Positions 1,277-24,791 of a stretch of DNA of 64,000 nucleotides are shown in pieces. Source of the stretch: an uncultured Clostridia bacterium (GTDB taxonomy: Bacteria > Bacillota > Clostridia > TANB77 > CAG-508). A program made the position numbers and the translations under genes. The stretch spans positions 20,156 to 84,155 of the forward strand of contig CAKOTF010000006.1 of NCBI GenBank assembly GCA_934120045.1, given 5' to 3'. Every line of letters begins with the position of its first letter. Positions within the stretch are counted from its first letter, which is position 1. A model generated the notes under the pieces. That model saw only the letters and a list, made by a program, of their open reading frames with translations. It searched no databases and was not told the origin of the DNA.

Positions 1277-2497
1277 TCAATATTTAAGCATTAAATCACC
1301 AAAAACAGCATATCCTACAGTAGGATTATTTACCAATACATGTGTTATTGCTCCAACAAATTTTCCGTTTTGTATTATTGGAGTTCCACTCATTCCTTGA
1401 ACAATTCCTCCTGTCTTTTCTATTAAATTTTCATCTGTTATATTTATTACCATACTTTTATTATCATAATAATTATTTTGATATATTTTGGTTATTTCTA
1501 ATTTATATTCTTTTATTTTTCCATCAATTCCACTCAAACATATTGCTTCACCTAATTTTATTTCATTTCTTGATGCTACTTTCATTTTCCTATTAAAATC
1601 TAATAACACATTTTGTGGATTTTTTATAACTCCAAATATTCCAAATTTTGTATTGTTGTAAATACTACCAATTGATATATCACTATTTATTACGCCTTCT
1701 ATCTTACCAGGTTCATCTTTTTGACCTTTTACTATTGATAATATTTGTGCATTATCTATCTCCCCTGACGATGTGCTTAAAATTTCACCTGTATCTATGT
1801 CTGTTATTGCATGGCCTAATGCTGCAAAACATTTTGTATCTTCATTATAAAAAGTTACTGTTCCAACACCTGCAGCACTATCTCTAACCCATATTCCAAG
1901 TTTATATTTATCATCTTTATTTTTTACTGGTTTTATTTTTCCTGTCTTTATTTCCTCTTTATGATTATATGTTAATTCAACCTCTTCACCCAAAGATTTA
2001 TTTATTTCTTCAACTAATCTATTAGTCGATGTAATTTCAACTCCATTAACATGTGTTATACAATCTCCTTCTTGAATACCTGTTTCTTGATATGGTTTAT
2101 ATATATTACCATTTTCTCCTTCAATTGATGCCATTCCAACTACCATAACACCATTTGTATACAATTTAATTCCAACAATTTCTCCAACTGGTATTACATC
2201 AACATCTTCTATAACATTAACATTTATTGTTTTTAACTTAATTTTATCAAATAAGCTTACATCTAGCTTTTCTTCTCCAATTTCATTAAATCTACTTGAA
2301 TATAATGTTGAAGATGTTTCTATCAAATCATCTTCATTTGATATTTTAATTCCCCATAATGTAGGAATACTTACCTCTTGCCCACGAAAGATTTGTATAG
2401 TTTGTGGAATATTATCAACAGAAACCACATATATAAATATAAAAAATAATACAAATAATAGAAATACTCTTTTTAAATGTTTCATTTTTTTCCTCAC
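1277..2497 (-). CDS. spoIVB: stage IV sporulation protein B, SpoIVB serine peptidase (S55)
   Basis: 406 aa. N-terminal signal/TM, a PDZ-like region, and the S55 peptidase core (GTVTFYNEDTKCFAALGHAITD ... MSGTPIIQNGKFVGAITHV). Confidence 0.9.
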   Translation of the reverse strand: MRKKMKHLKRVFLLFVLFFIFIYVVSVDNIPQTIQIFRGQEVSIPTLWGIKISNEDDLIETSSTLYSSRFNEIGEEKLDVSLFDKIKLKTINVNVIEDVDVIPVGEIVGIKLYTNGVMVVGMASIEGENGNIYKPYQETGIQEGDCITHVNGVEITSTNRLVEEINKSLGEEVELTYNHKEEIKTGKIKPVKNKDDKYKLGIWVRDSAAGVGTVTFYNEDTKCFAALGHAITDIDTGEILSTSSGEIDNAQILSIVKGQKDEPGKIEGVINSDISIGSIYNNTKFGIFGVIKNPQNVLLDFNRKMKVASRNEIKLGEAICLSGIDGKIKEYKLEITKIYQNNYYDNKSMVINITDENLIEKTGGIVQGMSGTPIIQNGKFVGAITHVLVNNPTVGYAVFGDLMLKY

Positions 2498-2539: not shown

Positions 2540-4342
2540 TTATTCAGCCAAATCTTGCTTTTCCAAAATCATACCAGCAGAATTTTGTATTAAAACTTTT
2601 AAATTATATCTTTTTATTTCATCTTGAACTTTATCATATTCTCCATCATAATCATTTTTCAATAAAACAAAATAATGATATTTTGTTTTTTCCATAAATT
2701 TTTCAATTGTTGTTACTGAATCATTTGTTAATGCATTTGTTAAATCATTTCCATTTTTAGTTATACTATAAATCCACCTATCTCTTCCATTATTTCCTTT
2801 TGTTTTACAAAATAATGTATCATCATTTTGCATTGTGTTTATATTATTATTATAATATTCAAATAAATATAATTCCTTATCTTTTATAAGTGCATAATCC
2901 TCCTTTATTTCCTCACCATTTGTTAAATATATATCAAATAAAAAATAATTTTTATCTAATACCATTGCAGAAAAAATTCCAAAAGAATAAATTATCAAAA
3001 ATATTGAAACTATAATTGTAACAATTTTATTTTTATCAATAAATATTTTTAATATTTCATAATTACTTACTATTAATACTAAAAATAACATATAATATAT
3101 TTTATAGTAATAATAATTTGATACTACTTCAAGTTTCATAAGCATAAAACTTATTAATGTAAATACTACAGTTAAATATAATAATTTATCTATAAAAACA
3201 TTTTTCTTTTTAAATGATATATATATCATATAAACTTCACTTAATAATAAATATGGTAGTATATTCATTATTAAATTTTTGTATATAAATCCATCTGTTG
3301 CTATTGCAGTTACATAATCAAATGCTTTATTATTTGCTTGCATTAATGGATATCCAATAAAATATATTACTCCTATCAATCCTGGAATAACAAGTGCAAT
3401 TATAATTTCAAAAATATTCTTTTTACTAAATATTTTTATACTTTGCTTTTTATTTGTTACTAAAATATACCAAAATTCTGATAAAAATAAAACTGGAGCA
3501 AAATAGTAATATGAAAACATTATTCCTAAGTTTAATAAAAATAAAGAGCTAATCTTATAGTTTGTTTTAATTTCACTTTTCATAGTAATTATTATACCAA
3601 TTATTATATCTAGTCCCATTCCCAAATATGAGAATCCTGCAAATAAACTATTTAATTGATATGCTAATATATAGAAAAATGTAAGTAATAATGCTAATAT
3701 TTGATGTTTCTTATTCTTGTGATCTATTGAAAGTACTGTATACATTAATAGTCCTGATAATACCCAAATAAATATATCAAATATAAAATATAATTTACAG
3801 AAAAATGCTTCATCAATAATTCCTTTAAAAAGTTTTAAGAATATTCCTGTATTTACATATGCTCCTGTCATTAAATATGGAGTATTCAACCATTTTATTG
3901 TGTCTGAACTTTCTCTTGAAAATAATGTTGAATATCTATAAAAATCATCTGATGCAAAATAATGTGTTGCTGCATCTGTAACTGCATGTTTTATTGCAAT
4001 ATTTGTTCCATAATTCATAATAGCAATTGATATAGAAGCTATTAGTATAATTATAACTGCTATAATATCTAATTTATCTATATAATATTTTTGTATATTT
4101 TTTGTTTTTATTTCTTTAGATATAAAAATAGCTGAAAAAGCTATATTAATAATTGCTAAATTTAATAGTGTTGACTTCAAATGTACAAAAAACATTAATT
4201 GTGTAATAAAAATATTATACGTTAAAAATAAAATAACACTTATAATTACACTATGTATTAAATTCTCTTTTTTTTCACTTTTATTTAATAACAAATATGA
4301 TATTATTAATATTAGTGAAGTTAAAATATATATAATGTTCAT
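2540..4342 (-). CDS. large polytopic membrane protein (12 or more predicted TM helices plus a ~140 aa C-terminal soluble domain); possible GT-C-like glycosyltransferase, function unknown
   Basis: 600 aa, very hydrophobic. No recognisable catalytic motif by eye. The WWDYG motif is absent. Confidence 0.5.
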   Translation of the reverse strand: MNIIYILTSLILIISYLLLNKSEKKENLIHSVIISVILFLTYNIFITQLMFFVHLKSTLLNLAIINIAFSAIFISKEIKTKNIQKYYIDKLDIIAVIIILIASISIAIMNYGTNIAIKHAVTDAATHYFASDDFYRYSTLFSRESSDTIKWLNTPYLMTGAYVNTGIFLKLFKGIIDEAFFCKLYFIFDIFIWVLSGLLMYTVLSIDHKNKKHQILALLLTFFYILAYQLNSLFAGFSYLGMGLDIIIGIIITMKSEIKTNYKISSLFLLNLGIMFSYYYFAPVLFLSEFWYILVTNKKQSIKIFSKKNIFEIIIALVIPGLIGVIYFIGYPLMQANNKAFDYVTAIATDGFIYKNLIMNILPYLLLSEVYMIYISFKKKNVFIDKLLYLTVVFTLISFMLMKLEVVSNYYYYKIYYMLFLVLIVSNYEILKIFIDKNKIVTIIVSIFLIIYSFGIFSAMVLDKNYFLFDIYLTNGEEIKEDYALIKDKELYLFEYYNNNINTMQNDDTLFCKTKGNNGRDRWIYSITKNGNDLTNALTNDSVTTIEKFMEKTKYHYFVLLKNDYDGEYDKVQDEIKRYNLKVLIQNSAGMILEKQDLAE

Positions 4343-4409
4343 AGTTGGTCTCCCTTTCTAATCCTTTTAATACTGAAAAAATAACACGATTAAAAAAATC
4401 CTGTTACTT

Positions 4410-4949
4410 TTATGTTGCTCCATTTATTGCAACTATTCCAGAAGCTGTTGCCACTATAATATGCTTCTCATCTCCAATTATTGTATAGTATACATTTTTT
4501 AATGCTTGTGATAATGTCAAATTATTATTTTTAGTTATTACTGAAACAATATCTCCTTCTTTTAAAACAACTTTTTTATTTGTTGCATTTCCATTAGAAT
4601 TTGATAATTTATCTTCAATTTGTGTTGTATATAATGAATAATACTGATTTACTCCTAATTCTCCAGTTTGATTAGTATATTCTTGTGAGTAATTTTTGTC
4701 TAATATTTTTACTTCTATACTAACATCATATGAATTTCCTGAACTATTTAATTGCATTATATAATTAGCATAATCTTCTGATGTTATTGCTCCTGTTTTT
4801 ATTATATTTTCTACAAATGATGATGTTTCATTATTTACAATAAGTTGTGATATATCATCATTCCTGTCTGCTAATAGAAACAATGGAACTAAAAACATCA
4901 ATGCTACAGCTGCAAAAATTCCTATTATATCTGACATAGATTCTTCCAT
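4410..4949 (-). CDS. Tad-locus small membrane-anchored protein (pilin-like or TadE-like; N-terminal TM helix)
   Basis: 179 aa. N-terminus MEESMSDIIGIFAAVALMFLVPLFLLA, then a hydrophilic domain. It is the last gene of the filament cluster. Confidence 0.4.
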   Translation of the reverse strand: MEESMSDIIGIFAAVALMFLVPLFLLADRNDDISQLIVNNETSSFVENIIKTGAITSEDYANYIMQLNSSGNSYDVSIEVKILDKNYSQEYTNQTGELGVNQYYSLYTTQIEDKLSNSNGNATNKKVVLKEGDIVSVITKNNNLTLSQALKNVYYTIIGDEKHIIVATASGIVAINGAT

Positions 4950-4970
4950 AAAGCGTAATGTCCTTTCTTA

Positions 4971-5678
4971 TTAGTAATTTTTCCAAATATATGTTATAAC
5001 TCTTTTTTTAGTTTTATTAATCTCAAGAGAATCCGTTTCTTTACCTGCACTTTTATCTTCTTGATAATATTCTCCAAGTTTTTCCTCAAATTTTTTGTCT
5101 TTTAAAAATTCATATAAACCTTCATTACCAATATCAATATTTCCTGATTTAGAACCAATTACCTCTTCATATAAAGGTTTTGTTTGTGCACTATTATATC
5201 TATTATAAGCTGTTATTTTTCTTGTATTATATGTTTGTAATTCATTTATAAAAAACTTATTATTTCCATTTGTTAATAATGTATTTAAATGGTCTATTGC
5301 AAAAAGTTCACCTGCAAAATTCTCTTCTTCAAGATCTATATAATTTATCTCATTCCATGGCTCACTTGATTCATGATTTTTTGTAGAATATAAAATAAGC
5401 TTATTTTCATTTCCACTAGCATCTCTAACATAAAATTCTACTCTATAGTTTTCTGAATATGCTTTATATAATGCTGGGATTATTGATTCAATTCCAACAT
5501 CTCTATTACTAGAAGATGCTGGTTTTATATAAACATATTCTTGTGTTTTATCTTTAGATGTTATTACACTATCAATAGCTTGTTTTGCATTTGAAAAAGT
5601 GGATATACTAATAGAAAGTGCAACAGTAAAAATTAGTATTCCAAAAGCAATTTTTAGCGAATCTACTGCATTTTCCAT
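4971..5678 (-). CDS. pilin-like protein (class III-like N-terminal signal, MENAVDSLK + hydrophobic helix)
   Basis: 235 aa. N-terminus MENAVDSLKIAFGILIFTVALSISIS. Paralogous N-terminus to ORFs 5697-6119, 6658-7158 and 7183-8070. Confidence 0.45.
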   Translation of the reverse strand: MENAVDSLKIAFGILIFTVALSISISTFSNAKQAIDSVITSKDKTQEYVYIKPASSSNRDVGIESIIPALYKAYSENYRVEFYVRDASGNENKLILYSTKNHESSEPWNEINYIDLEEENFAGELFAIDHLNTLLTNGNNKFFINELQTYNTRKITAYNRYNSAQTKPLYEEVIGSKSGNIDIGNEGLYEFLKDKKFEEKLGEYYQEDKSAGKETDSLEINKTKKRVITYIWKNY

Positions 5679-5696
5679 AATATATCCTCCTTTACT

Positions 5697-6119
5697 TTAG
5701 TTTCCATCTGTTAATTCATCTATTTGAATTTTTGTAATTAAGCCTGATTTTTTTTCTGGAACACATGTTACTTCATATCTTTTTCCTGTCTTTATTACTG
5801 GTTTTGTTGTTGCGTCTATAGCCATCAATACTTCTCCACCAGATTTAATTAATTGGATTTTTCTTGACTCATCTGTTTCTGTTAAATTATGATTATAAAC
5901 AGATTCTACTAATGCTTTAACTTTAGTTCCTGATACAGATGTTCCTTCATATGATTTATATGTAGCATTAAATGATTGAATTTCTACTTCATTTAAACCA
6001 GTTTCTGCACCTTTCATTTGGTTTTGTGCCAAAGTTACTACATAAACACCTAATGAAATGATTATTATTGCAACCAATACAGCTGCTGCAATTAAAAGAG
6101 CTTTTGTTGCATTCTCCAT
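5697..6119 (-). CDS. pilin-like protein (MENATKALL family N-terminus); candidate major subunit
   Basis: 140 aa. N-terminus MENATKALLIAAAVLVAIIIISLGVYVV. Short charged leader ending in K-A, then ~22 hydrophobic residues. It is the smallest paralog. Confidence 0.5.
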   Translation of the reverse strand: MENATKALLIAAAVLVAIIIISLGVYVVTLAQNQMKGAETGLNEVEIQSFNATYKSYEGTSVSGTKVKALVESVYNHNLTETDESRKIQLIKSGGEVLMAIDATTKPVIKTGKRYEVTCVPEKKSGLITKIQIDELTDGN

Positions 6120-6170
6120 ATATTTTCACCTTCTTTCGTTCAAATTTTATATATAATGTTAATAACAATA

Positions 6171-6596
6171 TTATATTTGTTCAAAAAGAATATATTTTAT
6201 TCTTTTTGTTTTTTCATGATACTCAACTTTTGAACTTTTAAATTTGTCATTCAAGAAAAATTGTACAAACTGTTCTACACCTTGTTTATAAATTTGTTCC
6301 ATTTTGTAAGTTGTATCATTATCTTTTATATGTATTTCTATTTCTATAGAATTTTGGTCATTTTGAATAAAATAACCATTTTCATCTTTCGAAATAGAAT
6401 TTTTTTCATTTAAATCTATTGACTTATTTATTAATGTTGCAATATCTATTCCATATATTTCCTTGTTCAGATATTGCTCAAACTCATTATTAGCACTAAT
6501 AATAGCCTTTTGCCTTCTTTGGTATGTATTGTATTGATATGCTATTATACAAACAATCACTACAACAATTGCCAAAAATACAAATATTTTTTTCAT
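6171..6596 (-). CDS. small membrane-anchored protein, Tad-locus associated
   Basis: 141 aa. N-terminus MKKIFVFLAIVVVIVCIIAY (one TM), then a hydrophilic domain. Confidence 0.4.
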   Translation of the reverse strand: MKKIFVFLAIVVVIVCIIAYQYNTYQRRQKAIISANNEFEQYLNKEIYGIDIATLINKSIDLNEKNSISKDENGYFIQNDQNSIEIEIHIKDNDTTYKMEQIYKQGVEQFVQFFLNDKFKSSKVEYHEKTKRIKYILFEQI

Positions 6597-6657
6597 ATCA
6601 ACCTCATTTTATCATTTACATATTTTTTTATCAATATAAAAACAAAATTTTAACTAT

Positions 6658-7158
6658 TTATTCATTTTTTCTAAATACAATTCGATTAACTCTTTTAGCT
6701 GAATTTAATGTTATTTCCTGTTCTTCACATGTATAATTTGTTGCATAATTAGCAGATAACCAATCTGATAAGTTCTTAGAATTTCCTACAATCTTCTCAA
6801 GGTGAACGTTAGAACTTTCAAATCTAGATCCTGGTTCCATAACTCCAAATACTAATACTTCAACATAATCTGTTCCAGCACTTGCTTTTTCTTCATTTAG
6901 TAATTCTTTTTGAGAATTATTTTCATATGCAACATTAGCAATAGAAACTACATCTTGAAAAGAAAACAATGTATTTTTTTCTGAAGTATAATTATAAAAT
7001 TGTATATTAAACTTTGCTAATGATTGATTATTAATCTCTTCTTGTGATGTTTTTACATAACCACCTATAGATAAATATAAATATACCCCTAATGCTAATA
7101 TCACAATTCCAATCAATACCCCTGCTGCCATAAGTAAAGCTTTTGTTGCATTTTCCAT
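6658..7158 (-). CDS. pilin-like protein (MENATKALL family N-terminus)
   Basis: 166 aa. N-terminus MENATKALLMAAGVLIGIVILALGVYLYL. Confidence 0.5.
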   Translation of the reverse strand: MENATKALLMAAGVLIGIVILALGVYLYLSIGGYVKTSQEEINNQSLAKFNIQFYNYTSEKNTLFSFQDVVSIANVAYENNSQKELLNEEKASAGTDYVEVLVFGVMEPGSRFESSNVHLEKIVGNSKNLSDWLSANYATNYTCEEQEITLNSAKRVNRIVFRKNE

Positions 7159-7182
7159 TATTTCTTCCTTTCAATTATTTTA

Positions 7183-8070
7183 TTAATTAAATTTAATAGT
7201 TCTATCTGTATTTAATACTATTTTGAAATCCATTTCTTTAACTTTTCCATTTTTTTCAATTAGTACTCCACTTGTGTCTTTTTCTGTTCCTTCACATATA
7301 AAATAAGCTCTTTTAAACTGAGTTAATTCATAATATTCAGCTGCAATTTTTTCTATCTTTACTATCTTATCTTTCTTGTTTTTCAAATTATTCTGTGTAT
7401 CAGTAGCATTGCTAGCTGTAAAATTTGTTTTTAATATCTTATCTAATAATTTAGCTGTTTTTACATTATTTTCATCATAATTTTCTTTTTGTCTTTCTGA
7501 CATATCTGCAGTATTTTGAGTTGATCTTGTGATCCAATCTCTTATTGTATGTACATTTGATGATAATAATTGCAAATTACTCTCTGATGCCACATTTGGT
7601 TGTGAAAACTCATTTTGCATTATACTAGAAAAACTATCAAGTAATTCATTCTTTTTAGAAGAAATTTTCTTCATATTTGAATTAGTTATTGGTGAACAAT
7701 CAGGAAATAAATAATTATATGTATTATTTTCTTCTATATGAAATGACTTCCATCTGTTATCAGTTTTTTCAATCCCAAATGTAATATTTAATTGTATTGG
7801 ATTATATCCTTCTCCTGAATTTTCATTCACCCAATTGTTATAATCTACAACTAAATTTATAACAGAAAGCATCTCATTTCCACGAATTGTCTTTCCATCA
7901 TAATTTGTAAATTTCTTATTTAATTCAACTATTTGGCTTAAAGTAAAATTATCACTTTGTTGTTGATAATAATTAGAAATTTGATTATATCCTAATGCCA
8001 ACATTGATAATATTATAATTGCTATTAAAAACCCTGCTGCTATTAATAATGCTTTTGTTGCATTTTCCAT
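7183..8070 (-). CDS. pilin-like protein (MENATKALL family N-terminus), large C-terminal domain; possible tip or minor pilin
   Basis: 295 aa. N-terminus MENATKALLIAAGFLIAIIILSMLALG. Confidence 0.45.
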   Translation of the reverse strand: MENATKALLIAAGFLIAIIILSMLALGYNQISNYYQQQSDNFTLSQIVELNKKFTNYDGKTIRGNEMLSVINLVVDYNNWVNENSGEGYNPIQLNITFGIEKTDNRWKSFHIEENNTYNYLFPDCSPITNSNMKKISSKKNELLDSFSSIMQNEFSQPNVASESNLQLLSSNVHTIRDWITRSTQNTADMSERQKENYDENNVKTAKLLDKILKTNFTASNATDTQNNLKNKKDKIVKIEKIAAEYYELTQFKRAYFICEGTEKDTSGVLIEKNGKVKEMDFKIVLNTDRTIKFN

Positions 8071-8091
8071 ATAATCAAACTCCTTTCATCA

Positions 8092-10158
8092 TTATTGTAA
8101 TCCAGAGAATGCACTACCCATACTTGATAATCCGATAAATACTAATGGTATTATCAAATATCCAACAAATAAACAAATCATTGGAGCAAATCCTACGAAT
8201 TTTCCTATTATTCCTTTTCTTGAAATAAATTGTTCATTTGTTGCTTTACGTTTTTCTCTATGATAATCTTTATCTGCATCTAATTCATCAAATGCCTCTC
8301 TAATTGGTATTTTTTCTACTGCTGACTGTAAACTTTCTACAATTCTAATCATATCATGATTACTAATTGATTGTTTTAATTCCTCAAGTGCTTCCCAAGC
8401 ACCAGCTTCATAGTTATTTACACATCTTGCTATTGGCTCTTTGAAAATATTTGAATAACGTTCTAGCCATTCAAGAATCATTTCAACACTTATTCTTTCT
8501 ATTTTCATAAGCATTAAAATAATTGTTTGAAATTGCATTACTTCTGTTTGCATTTCCATTTGTCTCATTTTCTTTTGGAATACCATTAACCAAACTGGAA
8601 ACATATATCCAACCACAGCTATAACCATTGCAATTAATTCTTCAAACCATTTCATTTGTTCTGAGTTAATGATTTTTAACTTTTTTAAAATTCTTTCAGA
8701 ATCTGTTTTTAAATTTTCATCATTTTCTGTATAATAATCTGATTTTATCATAGCTTTTTGAATATCTTGAACTGTAACATCTAATTTTCCTTTAAATTTA
8801 TTTAAGAAATAATTGTCTTGTTCTGTTAGATTTTCAGCTTTTACCTGATCTTTGTCAGATAATTTTCCTAAAACTGTAGTTCTAGTTGTTGGCTCATTAT
8901 ATACATATTCTATGGAAATTCTATGTAACTGAGTAGTAAGAACAATTGTCGAAATAAAGGCCACAATTGCTAACATAATTCTATTTACATATACCCATTC
9001 CATTTTTGATTTTGATGCAGAATCTTTTAAAAGATTTTGCATTTTTCTATAATCTTTTGTTCCTTTTTTAGGAATAAACAAATTAATTATTTTTTTTAAT
9101 ACTGGTATATTATACAATTTATCTTGCCAAGGATGTTCTTTATGAGAAACTTCTGATTGTATTCCACCATTATCTTTTAATTTTCTTGTTAATATATAAG
9201 AAACTACTGTTATAATAACTATTATTATTTGAGCTAATAGTCCTAATTTCCCATTATAAAATTGACCTGTAAATGAGAAATTTGAAAGACACCATTTTTT
9301 TAATGGTTCTAATAGCAATACTGGTAATATTGAGATTATTGATAAACTTTGAAATACATAATTTAATTTATCTCTTTTTAAAATTTCAATTTGCATTTCT
9401 TGTGTAATATTATCTACATTTTTCAAAAATAATGATGAACCATCTTTATCTTTTCTATCACCAAATTCTTTTGTTAAATATGATATACCAGCAAATTCTT
9501 TTAAATAACTATTTGGTGCTGTATCATAATATTTTTCTAGTTCTGTTTCTGGATCATCTGAAATTAATATTTCATAAATTTTTTCCCCTTGTTTTGAAAC
9601 ACTTTTTTCATCATCTAAAGAAACTTGATATATGGCCTCTTCAACCATATTAAACTCATGATAAGCATGTCTAATTTCTGCAAAAAAGTCTACTTGTTCT
9701 TTTAGTAAATTATTATCTATTTTATCAACCATTCCATCCATCATAGAATCTATAATAAATAATTCGAAAATTAATAAAATAGACATTAACAATATATTAT
9801 TTTTAGTAAGTAAAATTGTTATAATAACAATAGGTATCAATATTAATATTGCATTCATTAAAATTTTTGCTGTATCTCTTCTTGTACTATATTCATCGTC
9901 AATATTTAAAATTTCAAGCCTTCTACGAAGTTTAAATAAATATCTTTTGATGAAAGGTATTTTAATAAATGTTATATATAATTTTTGGTACAAAACATCC
10001 ATTGAAAAACCACTAGTTTTTGTACCTTGCTGTAATTTCTTTATTTTTGCATATTCAGATTTTCCCATCTTTTTGGTTAATATAAAATATGCAATTCCAG
10101 CAATTACCAATAGACCAATAGAACCAAATATTATATATTTTAGCATATTAGCATCCAT
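8092..10158 (-). CDS. putative fused TadB/TadC-like inner-membrane platform protein (T2SS-F-like)
   Basis: 688 aa. Multiple TM segments alternate with large cytoplasmic helical regions. It lies immediately downstream of the CpaF-like ATPase, as in Tad loci. Assigned by context and architecture only. Confidence 0.4.
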   Translation of the reverse strand: MDANMLKYIIFGSIGLLVIAGIAYFILTKKMGKSEYAKIKKLQQGTKTSGFSMDVLYQKLYITFIKIPFIKRYLFKLRRRLEILNIDDEYSTRRDTAKILMNAILILIPIVIITILLTKNNILLMSILLIFELFIIDSMMDGMVDKIDNNLLKEQVDFFAEIRHAYHEFNMVEEAIYQVSLDDEKSVSKQGEKIYEILISDDPETELEKYYDTAPNSYLKEFAGISYLTKEFGDRKDKDGSSLFLKNVDNITQEMQIEILKRDKLNYVFQSLSIISILPVLLLEPLKKWCLSNFSFTGQFYNGKLGLLAQIIIVIITVVSYILTRKLKDNGGIQSEVSHKEHPWQDKLYNIPVLKKIINLFIPKKGTKDYRKMQNLLKDSASKSKMEWVYVNRIMLAIVAFISTIVLTTQLHRISIEYVYNEPTTRTTVLGKLSDKDQVKAENLTEQDNYFLNKFKGKLDVTVQDIQKAMIKSDYYTENDENLKTDSERILKKLKIINSEQMKWFEELIAMVIAVVGYMFPVWLMVFQKKMRQMEMQTEVMQFQTIILMLMKIERISVEMILEWLERYSNIFKEPIARCVNNYEAGAWEALEELKQSISNHDMIRIVESLQSAVEKIPIREAFDELDADKDYHREKRKATNEQFISRKGIIGKFVGFAPMICLFVGYLIIPLVFIGLSSMGSAFSGLQ

Positions 10159-10188
10159 TTAATAACATCTTCTCCTTTCATCTATTTT

Positions 10189-12084
10189 TTATGCTTTTTT
10201 TTCCTTTGATTTTCCCCAATACTTTTGTATAAAGTTATCAAATTCTTTGGCATCTGCCTCATCCATATTTGCTCTCATAGCACTTATATTCTCATCTGTT
10301 ATTTTATTTGTTAATTGATATTCTCCATCAACATATTCTAAAACATTTTTATATGTATAAAGATTTTGTTCTGTTACTTTTGAAAAATATGTTGTTGCAT
10401 TTTCAAAGAATTTTGTTACTTTTGAATCCATATCTTTCTCTTTTTTATATTCAAAATCATATGTTTTTGAATCTTTAACAGGAATACACTCTGTTACTCT
10501 TTCAATATATCTTCTACCCCTAAAGTCTTTTTGTAAGTGTATATCAAAATTTAAAACTTGTACAACTTGCTCTTCAGCTGTTTTTTCATTTTTAAATACT
10601 CCTGCTCTTAACATTGAGTTTCTTAATGCTGTAACTAAATCTGGGAATGTTTTAGCATGGTGAGTAAATAATGTAAATTTAGAAGCAACCTGTGCTGATT
10701 GAATCATCCAAGATGCTACTGGGTCTGTTGCAACCTCACCGATAATATTAACAGAACCATCTGTCTTTTTCTGAACATCCAAACACTCTTGTCCAGAAAT
10801 TGTATCTGTTTCACGCATTGATAAAATATTTCTTGTTGGATAAACCTTTCTTAAATGTAACTCAAATGCCATTTCAGTAATACGTAAGTTCATTGTTTCA
10901 TATATATTTTCAATCAGTCCCATAAGTAATGTTGTTTTACCACAACCTTGCTCACCAGTTATTGATGTTATTCTTGCACCTTTTACAAGATATTTTAATA
11001 AATCAATTACTTTTTCTTTACCTGGCACATCTCCAGTCCATTGTTCAACAGTTGCACGCTTTACGTCAAACTTTCTTACGAAAAATGCCCACGTCTCTGA
11101 CATACTTGGTCTTACTACTACAACACGAGACCCATCTTTCATTTCATTTACTTTATAACCATTTGTATCAGATAATTGTCCTGGGTTATTATATTTATAA
11201 ATATTTTGACAAACTCTCTTTAATTCAGCTTCTGTTCCAAATGATAGAAATGCTAAACGAATTGATTTACCTTGAAAGAATATCCAAATACTATCACATG
11301 CCCTTGGAACTTTATGTTCAGATACTTGTTCAATATAATCTGTTGTTCCTGTTTGTGCAACTTGGCTTATAAAACTTTCTGGTAAACCAGATACACCACC
11401 AGATACACCATCTATATTCATATCTCTTATTTCATCAATTGAACTATATCCTTTATAATGTTGGTAAATTCTTTGAACTACAATTTCTAGTTTATCTTTA
11501 AATGATAATACTAATCTTTCTTTTTCATAAATATCTGATATTTCATCTTCTGTTATAACATAACATGGTTTTGATTCGCCTTGTAAATATTTTAATGTTG
11601 CAAGATTATATCTTTTTATTAGTTCTGTTAATGCTTCATATCCAAATTCTTTTTTATACATATATATTATAATATCAAATTTATCTTGTGCAGATAATAA
11701 TGATGGTACATCAAAAGGAATTGCTTTTGAAATATTTGTTTCATCAACGCCATATTCTTTTGATAATAAATCTGATATTAATTCTTTTACATATCTTTTA
11801 TCATTAATATCTCCATATGTACAACCTTTTAAAGCCTTTTTTAATGCATATTTTTTGCTTTTTCTTCTTTTTAACTCTTCTTCAGATAATCCTATATCAT
11901 AAAGATTTATTTTTGTTATTTCATCAAGCCTTTTTTTAACATAATCTCTCATTTTTTCAAGAGTATATGTTTTGTCATCTTTTTCAATTTCCTGCTCAAC
12001 CTCTTCGTTTTGCTTATTTTTCAACCAAAAGATTAATGCCATTCCACCAATAATTAAAACGACAATGCATAATAAAATTGTCAT
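10189..12084 (-). CDS. CpaF/TadA/VirB11-family secretion ATPase with N-terminal TM anchor and ~300 aa N-terminal extension
   Basis: 631 aa. Walker A ITGEQGCGKTTLLMGL. A downstream His-box-like FTHHAKTFPDLVTALRN resembles the T(I)HANS motif of CpaF/VirB11. N-terminus MTILLCIVVLIIGGMALIFWL is hydrophobic. Confidence 0.8.
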   Translation of the reverse strand: MTILLCIVVLIIGGMALIFWLKNKQNEEVEQEIEKDDKTYTLEKMRDYVKKRLDEITKINLYDIGLSEEELKRRKSKKYALKKALKGCTYGDINDKRYVKELISDLLSKEYGVDETNISKAIPFDVPSLLSAQDKFDIIIYMYKKEFGYEALTELIKRYNLATLKYLQGESKPCYVITEDEISDIYEKERLVLSFKDKLEIVVQRIYQHYKGYSSIDEIRDMNIDGVSGGVSGLPESFISQVAQTGTTDYIEQVSEHKVPRACDSIWIFFQGKSIRLAFLSFGTEAELKRVCQNIYKYNNPGQLSDTNGYKVNEMKDGSRVVVVRPSMSETWAFFVRKFDVKRATVEQWTGDVPGKEKVIDLLKYLVKGARITSITGEQGCGKTTLLMGLIENIYETMNLRITEMAFELHLRKVYPTRNILSMRETDTISGQECLDVQKKTDGSVNIIGEVATDPVASWMIQSAQVASKFTLFTHHAKTFPDLVTALRNSMLRAGVFKNEKTAEEQVVQVLNFDIHLQKDFRGRRYIERVTECIPVKDSKTYDFEYKKEKDMDSKVTKFFENATTYFSKVTEQNLYTYKNVLEYVDGEYQLTNKITDENISAMRANMDEADAKEFDNFIQKYWGKSKEKKA

Positions 12085-12091
12085 ATTATTT

Positions 12092-12952
12092 TCACCTCAT
12101 TCTCATTTGCAATTCTTGTATTTTATTAATAATTTTTTCTACAAGTTTATCCAGTTCTTTCATAAAGATGTAATTAGCATCTGTTGTATCTTTTATTCTG
12201 CTTAATCTATAGAATAAATCTACAACTTCAATCTCTTCAGCTGCTTCATATAATAAAATATTAAAAGGAATAACTGATAATTCTTTCTTTTCTTTTAAAT
12301 ATTTTTGTAAATTATTCTTATTGTATTTTGAATAATGGCTATATTTTCCTATTGCTATAATATTTTTAGGTTCTGCAATAACTGGATTATCAATTTTTAA
12401 TTTCATATAATAATCAAGGCTTCTTAACTTTTGACCTGCAACATAAACATTTATATCTGCAATTTTTAGTATTTCATTTCTTACATCTTCATTTAATTCT
12501 CTACTTAAGTCTACTAATACCATATCATAATATTGATTAGCTACACTTAATATTGCAGGATATACTTTTGCTATTGTTTGATAACTCTTTAAATTTTCTT
12601 CTTTTGTTTTGTTTTTATCTTCAATATATCCATCTAAAACTTCTAAAACATCTTTAAATATAACATGTGTATAATCTGTTATAGTATCAGGTGTTATCTT
12701 ATTACTTGAAAGTAATCTTGATAATCCTTCTACTCCATTTTCTATTGCGACGTTTGAACTATCTGCCATAATTTTTTTTCTTACAGCATTATCTTTCCAG
12801 AAACAATTTTTTATTGTTGAATCATTATATGCTGTTGAAACTATTAATACTTTTAAATTACGTTCAATTGCCATCTTCGTTGCAACAGCCACTGTTGATA
12901 TTGAAACTCCTGATTGTTCTCTATCTGCATTCCAAAATGTTACAATTGCCAT
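12092..12952 (-). CDS. TadZ/CpaE-like ParA/MinD-fold protein with degenerate Walker A
   Basis: 286 aa. The N-terminus FWNADREQSGVSISTVAVATKMAIERNLKVLIV aligns to the ParA deviant Walker A (KGGVGKTT). The lysine and glycines are replaced. Confidence 0.4.
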   Translation of the reverse strand: MAIVTFWNADREQSGVSISTVAVATKMAIERNLKVLIVSTAYNDSTIKNCFWKDNAVRKKIMADSSNVAIENGVEGLSRLLSSNKITPDTITDYTHVIFKDVLEVLDGYIEDKNKTKEENLKSYQTIAKVYPAILSVANQYYDMVLVDLSRELNEDVRNEILKIADINVYVAGQKLRSLDYYMKLKIDNPVIAEPKNIIAIGKYSHYSKYNKNNLQKYLKEKKELSVIPFNILLYEAAEEIEVVDLFYRLSRIKDTTDANYIFMKELDKLVEKIINKIQELQMRMR

Positions 12953-12967
12953 TTTTTCTCTCCTTTT

Positions 12968-13654
12968 TTATATTTCCTTGATCATTTTCTTAAGCATTTT
13001 TTCATCTAAGCCATTACACAATTCTTTTACTAAATATACAATATTTTCTCTATATTCATTACTTAAATTTTTCAATTTAATGCATTGTAATCTTTGATTT
13101 TCCATGTGTACTGATAAATCACCATTTTCTATTAGAAAATATAATTTATTATCAGTCCATTCTTCCTTAAGTTCCATTGTTAAATAATCGAAATATTCAT
13201 CTTCCTCTTTTAACATTTCTTTTGTAAAAAATAATCTTGTCATTTTTAATGGAAAATTTATCTCTTTTAAAAGTTCAATTCCTTTTTTTAAAGAATACAC
13301 GTCAAAAGATGTTACATAATATAATTTATTAAAATCTGTAATTTCAAAATTTCTTGCCCCATTAAAATTATCTATATCTATAAAAATATAATCATATTCA
13401 AGTTCGTTTTCTGTATCAACACCTAAATAATGTGCTATTTGCACCATATCTTCAAATCCAATAGCTACATCAATATCTTCGAATGTTGTTACATAAGAAA
13501 TTGTAGGTAATATATTAGGAACTCTATATTTAGATTTTTGTTCTTTAGTAGAATCTATAAATAGAATTTTTTTTCCACATCTAGTTAATATTTTTGAGAT
13601 GTCTAATATTAAATCAGTTTTATCATATACTCCTATAAATCCAACTTTCATCAT
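12968..13654 (-). CDS. second TadZ/CpaE-like ParA/MinD-fold protein with degenerate Walker A
   Basis: 228 aa. N-terminus MMKVGFIGVYDKTDLILDISKILTRCGKKILFIDSTKE has a ParA-like layout but no GKT. Confidence 0.4.
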   Translation of the reverse strand: MMKVGFIGVYDKTDLILDISKILTRCGKKILFIDSTKEQKSKYRVPNILPTISYVTTFEDIDVAIGFEDMVQIAHYLGVDTENELEYDYIFIDIDNFNGARNFEITDFNKLYYVTSFDVYSLKKGIELLKEINFPLKMTRLFFTKEMLKEEDEYFDYLTMELKEEWTDNKLYFLIENGDLSVHMENQRLQCIKLKNLSNEYRENIVYLVKELCNGLDEKMLKKMIKEI

Positions 13655-13722
13655 GTCATCTATTATCCTTTCTATACCTTATTCACATAGTAAGGGCATA
13701 TGTTAATGCCCTTACTGATTAA

Positions 13723-14826
13723 TTATTCTCCAAGTGAATCTAAATATTTTTTTCTTGCTTCTTGAGCATTAGAAATACTTTCATCAATTTCATTTTTTAC
13801 ATTTGAGTCATAGTCAGCACCAATTTGTTGTTCTAAATATCTTCTTGCATTTGTTGCTGTTGTTGTATATCTCTTCTTTAATTCGTCTATTGCACTTGAT
13901 ACTATATTTGGATTTGCTATGTTTCCATTTGAATCTGTTATTAAAGCTGTTACAGAATCATTTGGTCTATATGTTGGTACAGCTGCATCTTGTATTCCTG
14001 CTTCTTTATATTTTGTTGCATATAATTTAGCTCCATTAATTCCTGCTGCTTCAACTATAGCACTAGACATTGATAAAATCTCATCTTCTCTTAATGATAA
14101 TCTTATTGTATCTGCTAAATGTCCATCAGCTCCAACTGGTATCTCTACTATTTTTTTTGAAACGACTATGTAATTTTGTCCATTTGGAAGCATCAATCTA
14201 ATATCAACATAATCACCATCTGTTAAGTCAACTGGTAAAACTACAACATTATATTCTTCTACTCTTACATCATTGGTAATAATATTATCTGTTTGTTGAA
14301 CCATATTTGGTGTTACAACTGTATTTTTTTTCATATCTAATTTTGCAATTACAGGTGCAGAGTTTAATTCAATATATTGTTTTGAATTTGATGATGTTTT
14401 TGTATAGTAATTTTCAGTTGAATCTTCTTTATATACCCTTACTTTTGTTTCTGAACCATTTGAGTCTGTTTGTATATAATATAATCCTTCTTCATCTCTA
14501 TTTAACATAGTTCCATCTTTTGTTTGTAAATACCAACTTTCAATAACTGATATTACAGATGTTGCATTTGCTGGTATTGTAGTTTGATCTATTGCTTTCA
14601 ATTCAAACATATCTTCTGTTATTTCTTCTCCAGATTTAACATCTTGATTTAATACATAAACTTTCTTTTTGTTTGCATTTACTGTTGAAATCTCTGTGTT
14701 TAATTTATTTACATAAAATAATAATAAAGCTATTATAATTCCTGATATTAATAGTGTTATAACAACTCCTAATATAAATGATGTTCTTGCTTTTTTTTGC
14801 ATTGGATTCATTGGCATTTTTATCAT
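13723..14826 (-). CDS. CpaB/RcpC-like Flp pilus assembly protein (N-terminal TM, SAF domain, RcpC domain)
   Basis: 367 aa. TM at residues 17-40. SAF-like VYVLNQDVKSGEEITEDMFELKAI. RcpC-like DGDYVDIRLMLPNGQNYIVVSKKIVEI. Confidence 0.65.
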   Translation of the reverse strand: MIKMPMNPMQKKARTSFILGVVITLLISGIIIALLLFYVNKLNTEISTVNANKKKVYVLNQDVKSGEEITEDMFELKAIDQTTIPANATSVISVIESWYLQTKDGTMLNRDEEGLYYIQTDSNGSETKVRVYKEDSTENYYTKTSSNSKQYIELNSAPVIAKLDMKKNTVVTPNMVQQTDNIITNDVRVEEYNVVVLPVDLTDGDYVDIRLMLPNGQNYIVVSKKIVEIPVGADGHLADTIRLSLREDEILSMSSAIVEAAGINGAKLYATKYKEAGIQDAAVPTYRPNDSVTALITDSNGNIANPNIVSSAIDELKKRYTTTATNARRYLEQQIGADYDSNVKNEIDESISNAQEARKKYLDSLGE

Positions 14827-15849: not shown

Positions 15850-16108
15850 TTTTCTCTCCTATCTCTAATCTTTTGATATTTTTTCACACAACATATTTTA
15901 AACAATTTATATTTTTTTTTCAATAGATTTTTTGAATTTAATTTTTTTTCCAAAAATTACTTGTTTATTTTCTTTTATTTTGCACATTCTATTCTTAGAA
16001 AAGGTTTTTACTTTTTCAAAAAAATTAAAACAGATTTTTAACTTAATATAAGTTCAATCAATATTTATATAAGATTAAAAGAAGTTATATATAACGGAGG
16101 TGAATACA

Positions 16109-16309
16109 ATGGCAAGTTCAAACAGCAATAAAAAATTAGTTCCAGAAGCAATGAATGCTTTAGACAAATTCAAGTATGAAGTAGCTTCTGAAATCGGTAT
16201 TACGCTTAAAGATGGTTACAATGGTGATATATCAGCAAAAGATGCTGGTAAAATAGGTGGAAACATGGTTAGAAAAATGATTCAACAAGTTGAAAATAAC
16301 ATGAAATAG
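16109..16309 (+). CDS. small acid-soluble spore protein, alpha/beta type
   Basis: MASSNSNKKLVPEAMNALDKFKYEVASEIGI...GGNMVRKMIQ carries the SASP alpha/beta signature. GGAGG sits 8 nt upstream of the ATG at 16109. The ORF track starts at a GTG at 16100, which is less likely. Confidence 0.9.
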   Translation: MASSNSNKKLVPEAMNALDKFKYEVASEIGITLKDGYNGDISAKDAGKIGGNMVRKMIQQVENNMK

Positions 16310-18162: not shown

Positions 18163-18872
18163 TATCTTTTTCCTCCTCTTTTTCCCTTATTTTCATTTAT
18201 ACCATATATTGGAATGCTTGCCAAAACTGTAACTCCTGAATTTTTTTCAATATCTTGAACTGATTTTATTGTTGTATCTAACATATTAGCAATTAATACA
18301 TATCCAAATGCAACAACTACACCAATAACAGCAAATATTAGTATATCTTTTTTATGGTTAATATTATATGGTTCGTTTTCAACTTCTGCTTCATCGTAAA
18401 CATATAAGTTTTCAATTTTATAATATTGTTTTACATTTTCAATAAATACTTTTGCTGTTTCATTAGCAATTTTTTGAGCTGTTACTGGATCATCATATTT
18501 TACTACAATATCTATCATATCAGCATTGTCTCTTGCCTGTATACTAATAGCTTTTCTTACTTCATCTTCTTGAAGGTCCATTCCTAGATTTTTTATTACT
18601 TCTCTAGGTATTTTATTTCCCTTAACCATATCACTATATGTAGAAACAAGTTTTGAATTTATATTAAGGTCATTTATTGTTATTCCATTTGTACTAGATT
18701 GGCTTGATGAGTTTGTAGCTAATAATAAACTTGTTTTAGATTGATATTTTGGTTTTACAAAGCCAACAGTATAAATTACTCCAATAACAATAAAAATTGC
18801 TGTTACTAGTATAATTTGTATTCTTTTTTCCCAGAATATTTGAATTAATTCTTTTAAATCTAATTCTTCCAT
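18162..18872 (-). CDS. Wzz/CpsC/YwqC chain-length determinant (BY-kinase transmembrane activator)
   Basis: 236 aa. N-terminus MEELDLKELIQIFWEKRIQIIL + TM, a periplasmic domain, and a C-terminal TM. It overlaps the kinase gene by 1 nt. Confidence 0.8.
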   Translation of the reverse strand: MEELDLKELIQIFWEKRIQIILVTAIFIVIGVIYTVGFVKPKYQSKTSLLLATNSSSQSSTNGITINDLNINSKLVSTYSDMVKGNKIPREVIKNLGMDLQEDEVRKAISIQARDNADMIDIVVKYDDPVTAQKIANETAKVFIENVKQYYKIENLYVYDEAEVENEPYNINHKKDILIFAVIGVVVAFGYVLIANMLDTTIKSVQDIEKNSGVTVLASIPIYGINENKGKRGGKR

Positions 18873-18884
18873 CTTCTTCCCTCT

Positions 18885-19724
18885 CTATTCTCTAACTCTT
18901 TTTTTTAGTGATCTATGATATACAATAATTTCATATATAACTGTAAATATTATTGAAATAAATAACATTACAATTCCAAGTATATTTATTTGATTTAATA
19001 TGTTTTTTATTATTGCTACTATTGTTTTTGAAAAAGCATCATTAAATGCTTTTATATTTGATATATCCACTTTTGTTTTTATTATAATAATAAAGACAAA
19101 TTGTAATAATGATGTTGCAAATGTTGTTTCTGCAAAATTAGCTAATATTTTTGATATATTTTTTATATTTAAAACAGCTAACAAAACAATGTCAATAATT
19201 GATATAATAATAACAATTTTATTTACTTTTTCTAAACCACCTAAAATTTTCTCATATAAATTATTTATTGTTTTGTCATATTTTGTATTTATAATTGAAT
19301 CTCTATATGATTCACATATATGATTAACAAATTCATCTATAGCATTACTATTTTTGCTTGTCCTAACATTTTGTTTATCTATATTTGAATTTAATTTTTC
19401 AGCAATCTCTGTTGTATCTATTTCCTCATTTGTTCCATCATATATATTTGATATTATTATATTAATATCTTTTTTTACTTTATCCTCTGTGCAAATATTT
19501 TCAAGTACTTCTTCATCTAAACCTGATTGACTTATATAATTTTCAAAATTTGATTCTACAATTTTATATGTTTCTGAATAAAAGTTAGTTTCATCTAATT
19601 TTTGAAGTATATATGTTTTGTTCAACATTGTTGATGTTACTACGTTTTTTATACCAACAAATAATAAACATACTGTAAGTATTACCATTATAATGAATTT
19701 TAGAATATTTATTATAATTTTCAT
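18885..19724 (-). CDS. hypothetical membrane protein (N-terminal TM plus C-terminal TM bundle)
   Basis: 279 aa. No recognisable motif. Confidence 0.4.
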   Translation of the reverse strand: MKIIINILKFIIMVILTVCLLFVGIKNVVTSTMLNKTYILQKLDETNFYSETYKIVESNFENYISQSGLDEEVLENICTEDKVKKDINIIISNIYDGTNEEIDTTEIAEKLNSNIDKQNVRTSKNSNAIDEFVNHICESYRDSIINTKYDKTINNLYEKILGGLEKVNKIVIIISIIDIVLLAVLNIKNISKILANFAETTFATSLLQFVFIIIIKTKVDISNIKAFNDAFSKTIVAIIKNILNQINILGIVMLFISIIFTVIYEIIVYHRSLKKRVRE

Positions 19725-19822
19725 TTTTTAGTTTATTCCTTTCTTAAATCATAAATCTAGGTTGGAAAAAAATTAAATCTTAGCATGGCCAAAATTATAA
19801 TTATTTTTCAACCTTATCTCTA

Positions 19823-24752: not shown

Positions 24753-24791
24753 TGTTTCAACTTCCTTTTATTTTCCATTCTATATCTTTTA

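Follow-up and report, generated by a model that had tools for sequence, protein, structure and literature searches.

What kind of protein is encoded by four neighbouring genes whose products all begin with Met-Glu-Asn-Ala (MENA) and continue into a hydrophobic stretch? The genes occupy positions 4971 to 8070 of a stretch of 64,000 nucleotides (hereafter the window; contig CAKOTF010000006.1 of assembly GCA_934120045.1, positions 20,156 to 84,155) from an uncultured Clostridia bacterium. An earlier inspection of the letters alone (the sequence-only reading) had proposed a pilin-like family with a major subunit and minor or tip subunits. Following this up by sequence comparison, we consider it probable, at roughly 0.6, that the MENA proteins belong, as subunits of a filament or pseudopilus, to a monoderm Tad-type (type IVc-related) machine that has diverged strongly. 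The four genes lie in a tight run of open reading frames (ORFs):

7183..8070, minus strand: putative pilin-like subunit of 295 amino acids, N-terminus MENATKALLIAAGFL (MENATKALL); candidate minor or tip subunit
6658..7158, minus strand: putative pilin-like subunit of 166 amino acids, N-terminus MENATKALLMAAGVL (MENATKALL)
5697..6119, minus strand: putative pilin-like subunit of 140 amino acids, N-terminus MENATKALLIAAAVL (MENATKALL); inferred candidate for the major subunit
4971..5678, minus strand: putative pilin-like subunit of 235 amino acids, N-terminus MENAVDSLKIAFGIL (MENAVDSLK)

The four ORFs with a common MENA start and a hydrophobic stretch are as the sequence-only reading had described them, in coordinates and in motif. 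Their minus-strand starts are at 8070, 7158, 6119 and 5678, each gene is preceded by a purine-rich ribosome-binding site, and each product has one hydrophobic segment of about 20 residues that begins at residue 7-10 (about 7-28). The N-termini had been called near-identical. On alignment this holds for the three MENATKALL proteins, but the 235-residue protein, the only one with MENAVDSLK, is clearly more divergent and has only M-E-N-A-x-x-x-L in common with them. At the DNA level, the pattern ATGGARAATGCA is found exactly four times in the window, always at a MENA start, against 0.06 expected, and none of 100 shuffles reached four. The four MENA genes are true paralogues.

The MENA genes make up the distal part of a 12-gene cluster (2540-14826) between a HAD hydrolase gene and spoIVB, directly downstream of machinery genes in one operon. 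A scan of species-representative genomes identified 80 related loci, all in metagenome-assembled genomes (MAGs) of uncultured gut Clostridia, and tblastn against plasmids located the same module on 35 Firmicute plasmids. Precomputed Pfam assignments contain nothing for any of the 12 genes, and the product names are "hypothetical" for all but the ATPase, the SAF-domain protein and one ParA-like protein. In our own Pfam and NCBIfam scans of the cluster, signal came only from the SAF domain of the first gene and from the TadA/CpaF-like ATPase. The machinery genes are:

13723..14826, minus strand: CpaB/RcpC-like protein of 367 amino acids, first gene of the cluster, with a membrane helix at residues 18-36 and a SAF domain (Pfam SAF, E = 2.7e-4)
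12968..13654, minus strand: cytoplasmic protein of 228 amino acids, weakly ParA/TadZ-like, with no evident Walker A motif; kept in 68 of the 80 loci and on plasmids
12092..12952, minus strand: TadZ/CpaE-like ParA-family protein of 286 amino acids; plasmid orthologue annotated as ParA
10189..12084, minus strand: TadA/CpaF-like secretion ATPase of 631 amino acids, with an N-terminal membrane helix at residues 3-21
8092..10158, minus strand: polytopic membrane platform of 688 amino acids, with a TadB-like and a TadC-like half by profile and hhalign evidence

The ATPase matches the NCBIfam TadA-family model TIGR03819 (E = 8.8e-10) with a score under the family cut-off, so that it is to be regarded as a distant relative; Pfam T2SSE reaches E = 2.6e-3 only. 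All its significant matches in the PDB are to CpaF (E = 5e-7, residues 270-537). The family of the 367-residue protein aligns with a CpaB/SAF set from five Tad loci (hhalign, 90%, E = 1.4e-6 over 232 columns; reversed control E = 0.22), and the Pfam RcpC domain was not detected in the window's protein. The 286-residue family aligns in the same way with a TadZ/CpaE set (92%, E = 5.3e-7 over 249 columns; reversed control E = 0.25, cross controls clean). The 228-residue protein is weakly similar both to this set (E = 5e-4, 31%) and to the 286-residue family (E = 4.5e-4).

The 688-residue platform gave no Pfam, T2SSF or PDB match by HMMER, even with a 51-member profile, and Pfam and NCBIfam scans of 51 members of its family brought up no T2SSF either. 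The profile of the family matches, collinearly, the two genes that follow the ATPase gene on the Clostridium botulinum plasmid pRSJ2_3: the 298-residue product at profile positions 60-287 (27 bits) and the 359-residue product at 340-671 (56 bits), whereas 400 shuffled controls reached 2.9 bits at best. Each half was also compared by hhalign with eight proteins at TadB/TadC positions in four loci (Rhizobium, Streptomyces, Bacillus thuringiensis and Alicyclobacillus; three of these proteins carry the annotation T2SS F family), with reversed and block-shuffled alignments as decoys. The N-terminal half scored 74 (96%, E = 1e-9; best decoy 23) and the C-terminal half 48 (84%, E = 7e-6; best decoy 28). 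An internal repeat is weak by hhalign (E = 0.06 and 0.002), and the duplication is shown through the TadB/TadC comparisons. The AlphaFold model of the platform, built on a shallow alignment, had a predicted local distance difference test score (pLDDT) of 49.6 and was not used for a fold search. The family is large: it counts 1,206 representatives when reduced to 50% identity and over 6,600 at 90%. On the profile and hhalign matches the platform is a TadB–TadC fusion, and the machinery corresponds gene for gene to a monoderm Tad system in which TadB and TadC are fused and the ATPase is membrane-anchored.

The pRSJ2_3 locus forms a bridge. It is more distant (ATPase 25% identical, E = 2e-17), and its first gene matches Pfam RcpC/CpaB at E = 1.3e-5 and 25.5 bits, under the gathering cut-off of 28.8. 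Its ATPase matches T2SSE and is followed by the membrane genes of 298 and 359 residues at the TadB/TadC positions; the small proteins there carry textbook prepilin leaders, MKILNNKRGG/LSHQLSVVLILL and …NKKGG/LSQLLSVVLLL. The order SAF protein, TadZ-like protein, ATPase, platform, small single-helix proteins is also that of Tad-like loci in Streptomyces, B. thuringiensis, Alicyclobacillus and C. botulinum plasmids, and in Streptomyces the genes after the platform encode a 75-residue protein and TadE/TadG. It is this position, directly behind a diverged Tad-type motor, that makes the MENA proteins most likely its pilin-like subunits.

Compared with monoderm Tad/Flp systems (type IVc; for instance the Bifidobacterium breve tad locus and loci on Streptomyces and Bacillus plasmids), the gene order is the same, all five machinery parts are homologous and, as in the compared plasmid Tad loci, the peptidase is not encoded in the locus. 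In B. breve, too, tadV lies outside the tad locus. The system differs in its fused TadB and TadC (688 residues), in its 631-residue ATPase with an N-terminal membrane helix and in its two TadZ-like genes. It also differs in its subunits: none has the size of an Flp pilin, their heads measure 95-265 residues, and they start with M-E-N-A-x-K-A-L rather than with a G/XXXXEY site. We would class the system as a new and strongly diverged form within the Tad lineage, not as a machine of a new kind.

How strongly is the start motif kept? The 140-residue protein has about 1000 homologues, none with a Pfam domain and none with any name but "hypothetical protein". Among 41 of these, with identities as low as 41%, M1, N3-L8 and I10-A13 never vary and E2 and L9 hardly do. 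When the four paralogue families of the 80 genomes are taken together, M-E-N and A7-L8 are constant while positions 4-6 vary. Orthologue starts taken with no motif filter read M-E-N-[A/V/I]-[T/S/A]-[K]-A-L, with D/E instead of K in the 235-residue group, whose orthologues read M-E-N-A-[AV]-[DE]-A-L-K (D/E at position 6, K at position 9). The length of the motif is nearly constant, with one extra residue in a few orthologues. We also collected 287 distinct 36-nucleotide N-terminal coding sequences from the 80 related genomes; since they were chosen by a pattern fixing M1, [ED]2, [ND]3, A7 and [LMI]8, the constancy of their residues is partly by construction, and the unfiltered orthologue N-termini carry the same motif. 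Synonymous variation among the 287 is free (GAA/GAG 179/101, with four codons for Ala at position 7 and five for Leu at position 8) although the residues do not change, which argues for purifying selection on the peptide and not for recent gene conversion or an RNA element. Between one and six motif-bearing genes are present per locus, most often three or four, and the 140-residue gene occurs twice in locus L030.

The sequence-only reading had proposed a profile search with the N-terminus, which might have led to a described pilin or pseudopilin family. With a 42-residue profile it led to at least 1,023 proteins, all unnamed and none with a Pfam domain, and the top matches are short fragments or copies with frameshifts rather than real pilins of Flp size. 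The motif stands in many database entries of just 34-74 residues, some of them on long contigs; they look like truncated or frameshifted longer genes and are probably assembly errors in AT-rich homopolymer runs. Positions 3-5 mostly read N-x-S/T (NAT, NAS, NVT), formally an N-glycosylation sequon. It recurs in two Thermobacillus homologues (L084 15936-16867; MSTNASKAL, MRNVTSMI) and is not kept in the 235-residue group. It lies on the side predicted to be cytoplasmic and probably caps the helix. A scan for promoters and terminators was uninformative in DNA of 25% G+C, where promoter-like sites were rarer than in shuffles.

Are the outer domains related as well? Two further small proteins of the cluster enter this comparison:

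6171..6596, minus strand: paralogue of 141 amino acids with the same outer domain on a different anchor (MKKIF…), without the MENA motif; kept in 78 of the 80 loci
4410..4949, minus strand: protein of 179 amino acids with one N-terminal membrane helix (MEESMSDIIGIF…VP); kept in 76 of the 80 loci and also found in plasmid systems

We removed the first 32 residues and compared the family alignments by hhalign. The outer domains of the 295-, 166- and 140-residue families and of the 141-residue ORF are mutually homologous (85-98%, E = 1e-12 to 7e-6). The alignments span about 100 columns for the 166/141 and 166/140 pairs, 166 against 141 being the strongest (98%, E = 1.2e-12), and in the 295-residue protein the homologous part is the start of the outer domain. 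The 235- and 179-residue families matched no other small-protein outer domain in these comparisons. The sequence-only reading had held the C-terminal domains to be unrelated, which stands for the 235-residue protein alone and fails for the other three. The small-protein part of the locus hence consists of an expanded paralogous family plus two other proteins with a single N-terminal membrane helix.

The 141-residue paralogue and the 179-residue protein are probably part of the same subunit set. By BLAST, the 179-residue protein corresponds to the third small gene of plasmid loci (Butyrivibrio, E = 2.6e-13; Thermobacillus, E = 2.5e-9). Its family has a conserved Pro at helix position 22, an acidic residue at position 2 or 3 and ADRxDDISQL after the helix. 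If the protein is unprocessed, the spacing of the Pro and the acidic residue is that of mature type IVa pilins. A kinship of this family with DUF4320 is suggestive by eye and unproven, the hhalign E value being 0.095 and that of the reversed control 0.041.

The heads diverge much faster than the machine. Orthologues of the 295-residue protein are 26-73% identical, and in more distant orthologues the heads are 26-45% identical, while the ATPase keeps 75-96% and the platform 57-91%. Such fast divergence, together with a variable copy number, is as expected of exposed subunits. Of the pattern of major plus minor or tip pilins put forward by the sequence-only reading, the gene arrangement is borne out: a small subunit and larger paralogues lie behind a Tad-like machine, as in monoderm Tad loci. 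A pilin fold was not confirmed by Foldseek (see below). The 140-residue protein would be the probable major subunit, and the larger paralogues minor or tip subunits.

These data also bear on the idea that the MENA proteins are ordinary, unrelated membrane proteins with similar signal anchors, their pilin likeness being coincidental. No known pilin family or fold was matched, as would be expected in that case, but the four like starts in tandem, the purifying selection on the motif in 80 genomes, the homology of outer domains and the obligate synteny with a Tad-like motor at about 115 loci make such a coincidence highly improbable. Uncleaved anchors of unrelated proteins, the case that the sequence-only reading had itself named as fatal to a pilin family, are contradicted by this synteny and paralogy.

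What, then, speaks against filament subunits? In its AlphaFold model (pLDDT 82.8), the 140-residue protein has a helix at residues 2-40, a break, a helix at 44-55, a strand, a helix at 64-80 and four strands, that is, a long N-terminal helix and a compact alpha/beta head. The following points count against the assignment. A Foldseek search of this model against the PDB returned no pilin, the best weak match being NTF2-like (E = 0.28, probability at most 0.18). The linker between helix and head (residues 31-45) is poorly conserved and of low confidence, so that in the model it looks more like the link to a tethered outer domain than like part of the continuous alpha-1 helix of a classic pilin. 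Pfam and NCBIfam scans of the cluster proteins and of 41 members of the pilin-like family gave no match to Flp, TadE, N_methyl or Class_IIIsignal, and the 141-residue paralogue has the same head on an ordinary MKK anchor. At the putative cleavage site, residue -1 of the MENA proteins is Ala and not Gly and there is no Glu at +5, and residues 1-5 are as conserved as the site itself, which is unusual for a leader that is discarded. A peptidase of the A24 type is missing from the regions searched (see below). Finally, the filament itself is a prediction. PDB sequence searches with pilin and platform profiles likewise found nothing, and an Flp-type major pilin of about 50-80 residues is absent from the cluster, whose smallest MENA subunit has 140 residues and a folded head.

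Much therefore turns on whether the N-terminus is cut. The sequence-only reading had placed a class III-like site after K6-A7, and we do find its shape, [K][G/A]/[L/I], to be common to distant homologues: in 9 of 10 (the window counted) an A or G directly precedes the hydrophobic stretch, K stands ahead of that residue in 7 of 10, and L or I follows. It was also right that the motif resembles neither the Flp (G/XXXXEY) nor the type IVa (G/FTLxE) site, M-E-N-A-T-K-A-L having no Gly and no E-Y. Its remark that no peptidase is encoded nearby extends well beyond the window: an A24 peptidase was looked for in the window, at the 80 related loci and at eight plasmid loci, and none was found. No ORF with a GxGD motif is present in the 64 kb. 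Among the 80 loci with 10 kb flanks only three ORFs have one, and at 533-565 residues these are too long for an A24 peptidase. No A24 peptidase is annotated in the eight plasmid loci, and a tblastn search of the carrier plasmids with Rhizobium CpaA matched only rhizobial relatives and was hence uninformative. On the other hand, tadV is commonly encoded away from the tad locus. Given a conserved, acidic M-E-N-A of fixed length and an Ala at -1, cleavage and non-cleavage appear about equally likely: a tolerant A24-type peptidase, its gene lying elsewhere, may cut the N-terminus after K6-A7, or, at roughly even odds, the N-terminus is kept.

If kept, the MENA proteins would be either leaderless pilins or permanently anchored components of the machine with a cytoplasmic docking tag. 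Leaderless subunits of a type IV filament would be used as translated, Met1-Glu2 taking the place of the processed N-terminus and of Glu5, and would need no prepilin peptidase. We regard this as a tentative, rather doubtful proposal; it is compatible with the near-invariant M-E-N-A of nearly fixed length, the Ala before the helix, the lack of any A24 gene in some 115 loci examined and Glu2. A Glu at position 2 blocks removal of the initiator Met by methionine aminopeptidase.

As anchored parts, the MENA proteins would form an alignment or stator sub-complex like PilN/PilO or GspL/M, with MENATKAL as a docking tag for the ATPase or the TadZ-like proteins, much as the conserved N-terminal peptide of PilN docks PilM. 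Several of the above points fit: the conservation of residues 1-5, equal to that of the putative site, the almost constant length before the helix, the missing peptidase nearby, the low-confidence linker after the helix, the 141-residue paralogue with its plain MKK anchor and the want of a pilin fold match. We nevertheless judge it unlikely, because heads that evolve far faster than the machine and a copy number of one to six would be unusual for a stator, the searches showed no likeness to PilN, PilO or GspM, and the genes occupy the place of flp/tadE/tadF in monoderm Tad loci, where the C. botulinum relative has true prepilin leaders.

The putative class III-like site invites comparison with archaeal type IV pilins and archaellins, the class III-signal substrates of PibD/FlaK. 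The MENA proteins resemble these in a very short putative leader, the absence of Glu at +5, heads that vary in size and the succession of [K/R] at -2, G/A at -1 and then L/I with a hydrophobic helix; K-A-L-L-I-A presumably fits the FlaFind-type pattern. They differ in that the machine here is bacterial and Tad-derived and the M-E-N-A leader is conserved, acidic and of fixed length. In addition, no archaeal-type peptidase was identified here, and Pfam Class_IIIsignal has no match.

Returning to filament subunits as the preferred assignment, how might the machine work? The subunits would insert with their short polar N-terminus (MENATK) in the cytoplasm and the variable head outside. The conserved N-terminal octapeptide and the helix would be recognized by the machine, a fused TadB-TadC platform for which the membrane-anchored TadA/CpaF-like ATPase would presumably supply the drive and the TadZ-like proteins the positioning. 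Pulled out of the membrane, the helices would then pack into a fibre, which may cross the wall via a CpaB-like collar. The 140-residue protein would be the major subunit of this fibre, and the larger paralogues would carry adhesive or otherwise specific heads. The function would be adhesion or aggregation.

Where does the system occur, and does its distribution fit such a role? The MAGs with the 80 loci come from humans (Hadza, Nepal, Brazil), rabbit, goat, roe deer and chicken. In these gut Clostridia genomes the cluster is syntenic, chromosomal and core, which suggests a part in attachment to host, mucus or particles. The plasmid carriers include Thermobacillus (pTHECO01), Paenibacillus, Cohnella, Lysinibacillus (pBsph) and Alkalihalophilus, and further Butyrivibrio (pCY186/pCY360), C. 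botulinum, C. argentinense and C. beijerinckii. Their ATPases, annotated TadA/CpaF, and their platforms are true orthologues of those in the window, the ATPases being 37-56% identical over 93-97% of the length and the platforms 24-37% over nearly the full length. On the plasmids the genes always stand in one order: SAF protein, one or two ParA-like proteins, ATPase, then the membrane protein (about 680 residues) and small proteins with a single N-terminal helix. Plasmids have one A-type gene plus three other small genes, whereas in the gut-MAG lineage the A-type has expanded to 3-5 paralogues.

The first small protein of the plasmid loci (137-161 residues) has its best counterpart in the window's 140-residue protein, with which it has the head motif F/Y-x-x-Y-[D/E]-x-x-x-V-S-G-x-x-V in common. 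Several of these proteins have an N-A-x-K-A-L start. Their N-termini are:

Thermobacillus: MSTNASKALYF
C. botulinum (type E plasmid): MGENARKALYM
C. beijerinckii: MGENGRKGLFM
Paenibacillus: MGNAQSALKM
Alkalihalophilus: MDSVTKAIIF
Lysinibacillus: MESPVVKAIIL
C. argentinense: MDSPVVKKIFL
Butyrivibrio: MGGSLSEGLRT

On the 3' side of the plasmid module (L084 20321-23911, L086 16826-19939, L085 19196-22084, L093 and L094) lie genes for an SLH or cell-wall-binding protein and for a surface protein of about 1000-1200 residues, which is assigned to DUF5704 on four plasmids and hypothetical in C. argentinense. GGDEF and HD genes follow in two plasmid loci (Thermobacillus and C. argentinense) and suggest control by cyclic diguanylate (c-di-GMP). 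Neither the window nor the gut-MAG lineage has these accessory genes (SLH, the protein of about 1000-1200 residues, GGDEF, HD). Peptidoglycan hydrolase genes lie upstream of or inside the module on several plasmids, and on the Thermobacillus plasmid a coupling protein and a relaxase are encoded upstream of it. With surface and cell-wall proteins, hydrolases and conjugation genes nearby, adhesion, aggregation or mating contact are plausible functions of the plasmid copies.

Could the module instead be a Gram-positive conjugative type IV secretion system, with the ATPase as VirB11, the 688-residue protein as a VirB6-like channel and the small proteins as a VirB8-like scaffold? Plasmid copies do lie near genes for coupling proteins, relaxases, NlpC/P60 proteins and cell-wall hydrolases. 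A relative offers itself in the Bacillus cereus-group plasmids of the pAW63/pXO2 type (with DUF4320 proteins), in which SAF protein, ATPase and two platform genes are likewise followed by small proteins whose helix begins 3-6 residues after Met (MSEAIQYVLFF, MRDVIIVVLL). The ATPase there is only about 22% identical, over partial coverage, and the platform is split. The Tad-like sub-cluster of pAW63-type plasmids has been labelled VirB11 (PMC1196294). The top Foldseek matches of the 140-residue model, non-significant and with probabilities of at most 0.18, are NTF2-like, which would also suit such a system. However, the window's ATPase matches TadA/CpaF and not VirB11 structures, the membrane protein is homologous to TadB/TadC, and CpaB-like and TadZ-like genes are Tad hallmarks. 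Moreover, the cluster sits between the hydrolase gene and spoIVB in the 80 genomes. The 12 cluster genes, in the window and at the syntenic loci, include neither VirB4 nor a coupling protein or relaxase, and on some plasmids these lie nearby but outside the module. Overall, a conjugation channel is improbable, and a Tad-type filament machine remains the reading that we favour.

The remaining gene of the cluster appears to be accessory:

2540..4342, minus strand: membrane protein of 600 amino acids with about 12 predicted helices, at the cluster end, present in only 15 of the 80 loci; no Pfam or NCBIfam match

The cluster is flanked by spoIVB (1277-2497, minus strand), the downstream neighbour in 61 of the 80 related loci, and by a gene for an alpha/beta-type small acid-soluble spore protein (16100-16309, plus strand), which identifies the host as a spore-former. 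A SpoIIIA-type sporulation channel, considered for the neighbourhood of spoIVB, was rejected on gene sizes and families, with no SpoIIIA Pfam match. In loci L081-L083 (near-identical contigs), a gene for a 772-residue TraG/VirD4-type coupling protein lies at locus coordinates 18327-20423, just past window position 1 and about 6.6 kb 3' of the 600-residue gene, after spoIVB, an aminoacyl-tRNA synthetase gene, obg and an ArsP_2 permease gene; it may mark an integrated conjugative element.

Most of the remaining window is a long minus-strand block for capsule or surface polysaccharide (16447-55318). Its genes encode a CpsB/CapC phosphatase, a Wzz chain-length protein, a tyrosine-kinase-like ATPase, two Polysacc_synt flippases, Polysacc_synt_2, a glycerophosphotransferase and a pyruvyl transferase. 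Inside the block, a 952-residue protein (28774-31632, minus strand) with a C-terminal type I dockerin (E = 9e-8) hints at cellulosome-like surface display in a low-GC gut Clostridium. A KAP-family P-loop NTPase of 818 residues adjoins a YhgA-like transposase (PF04754) at 22296-25817 (minus strand), which looks like a small mobile or defence-type insertion in the polysaccharide region.

What would such a system mean? A whole 12-gene locus for a putative surface filament is invisible to standard annotation, and our literature searches for the motif, the module and the plasmid loci found no description. A published survey of type IV filaments relies on ATPase, platform and pilin profiles (PMC6668835); as the T2SSF and pilin models of Pfam miss the system, those profiles may miss it too. 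If these are pili, surveys based on T2SSF and Flp models would under-count Tad-like systems of Firmicutes. The system is widespread, from low-GC uncultured gut Clostridia of humans, rabbits and ruminants to large plasmids of Paenibacillus, Lysinibacillus, Butyrivibrio and neurotoxigenic Clostridium. To our knowledge, every type IV filament system follows the rule of four universal parts: pilin, peptidase, ATPase and platform. Leaderless subunits, if true, would break this rule, and the unusual N-terminus makes the dispensability of the classical prepilin leader directly testable in cultivable plasmid hosts. If the MENA proteins do form pili, these would be prime candidates for attachment to host, mucus or fibre, or for cell-cell contact in plasmid transfer.

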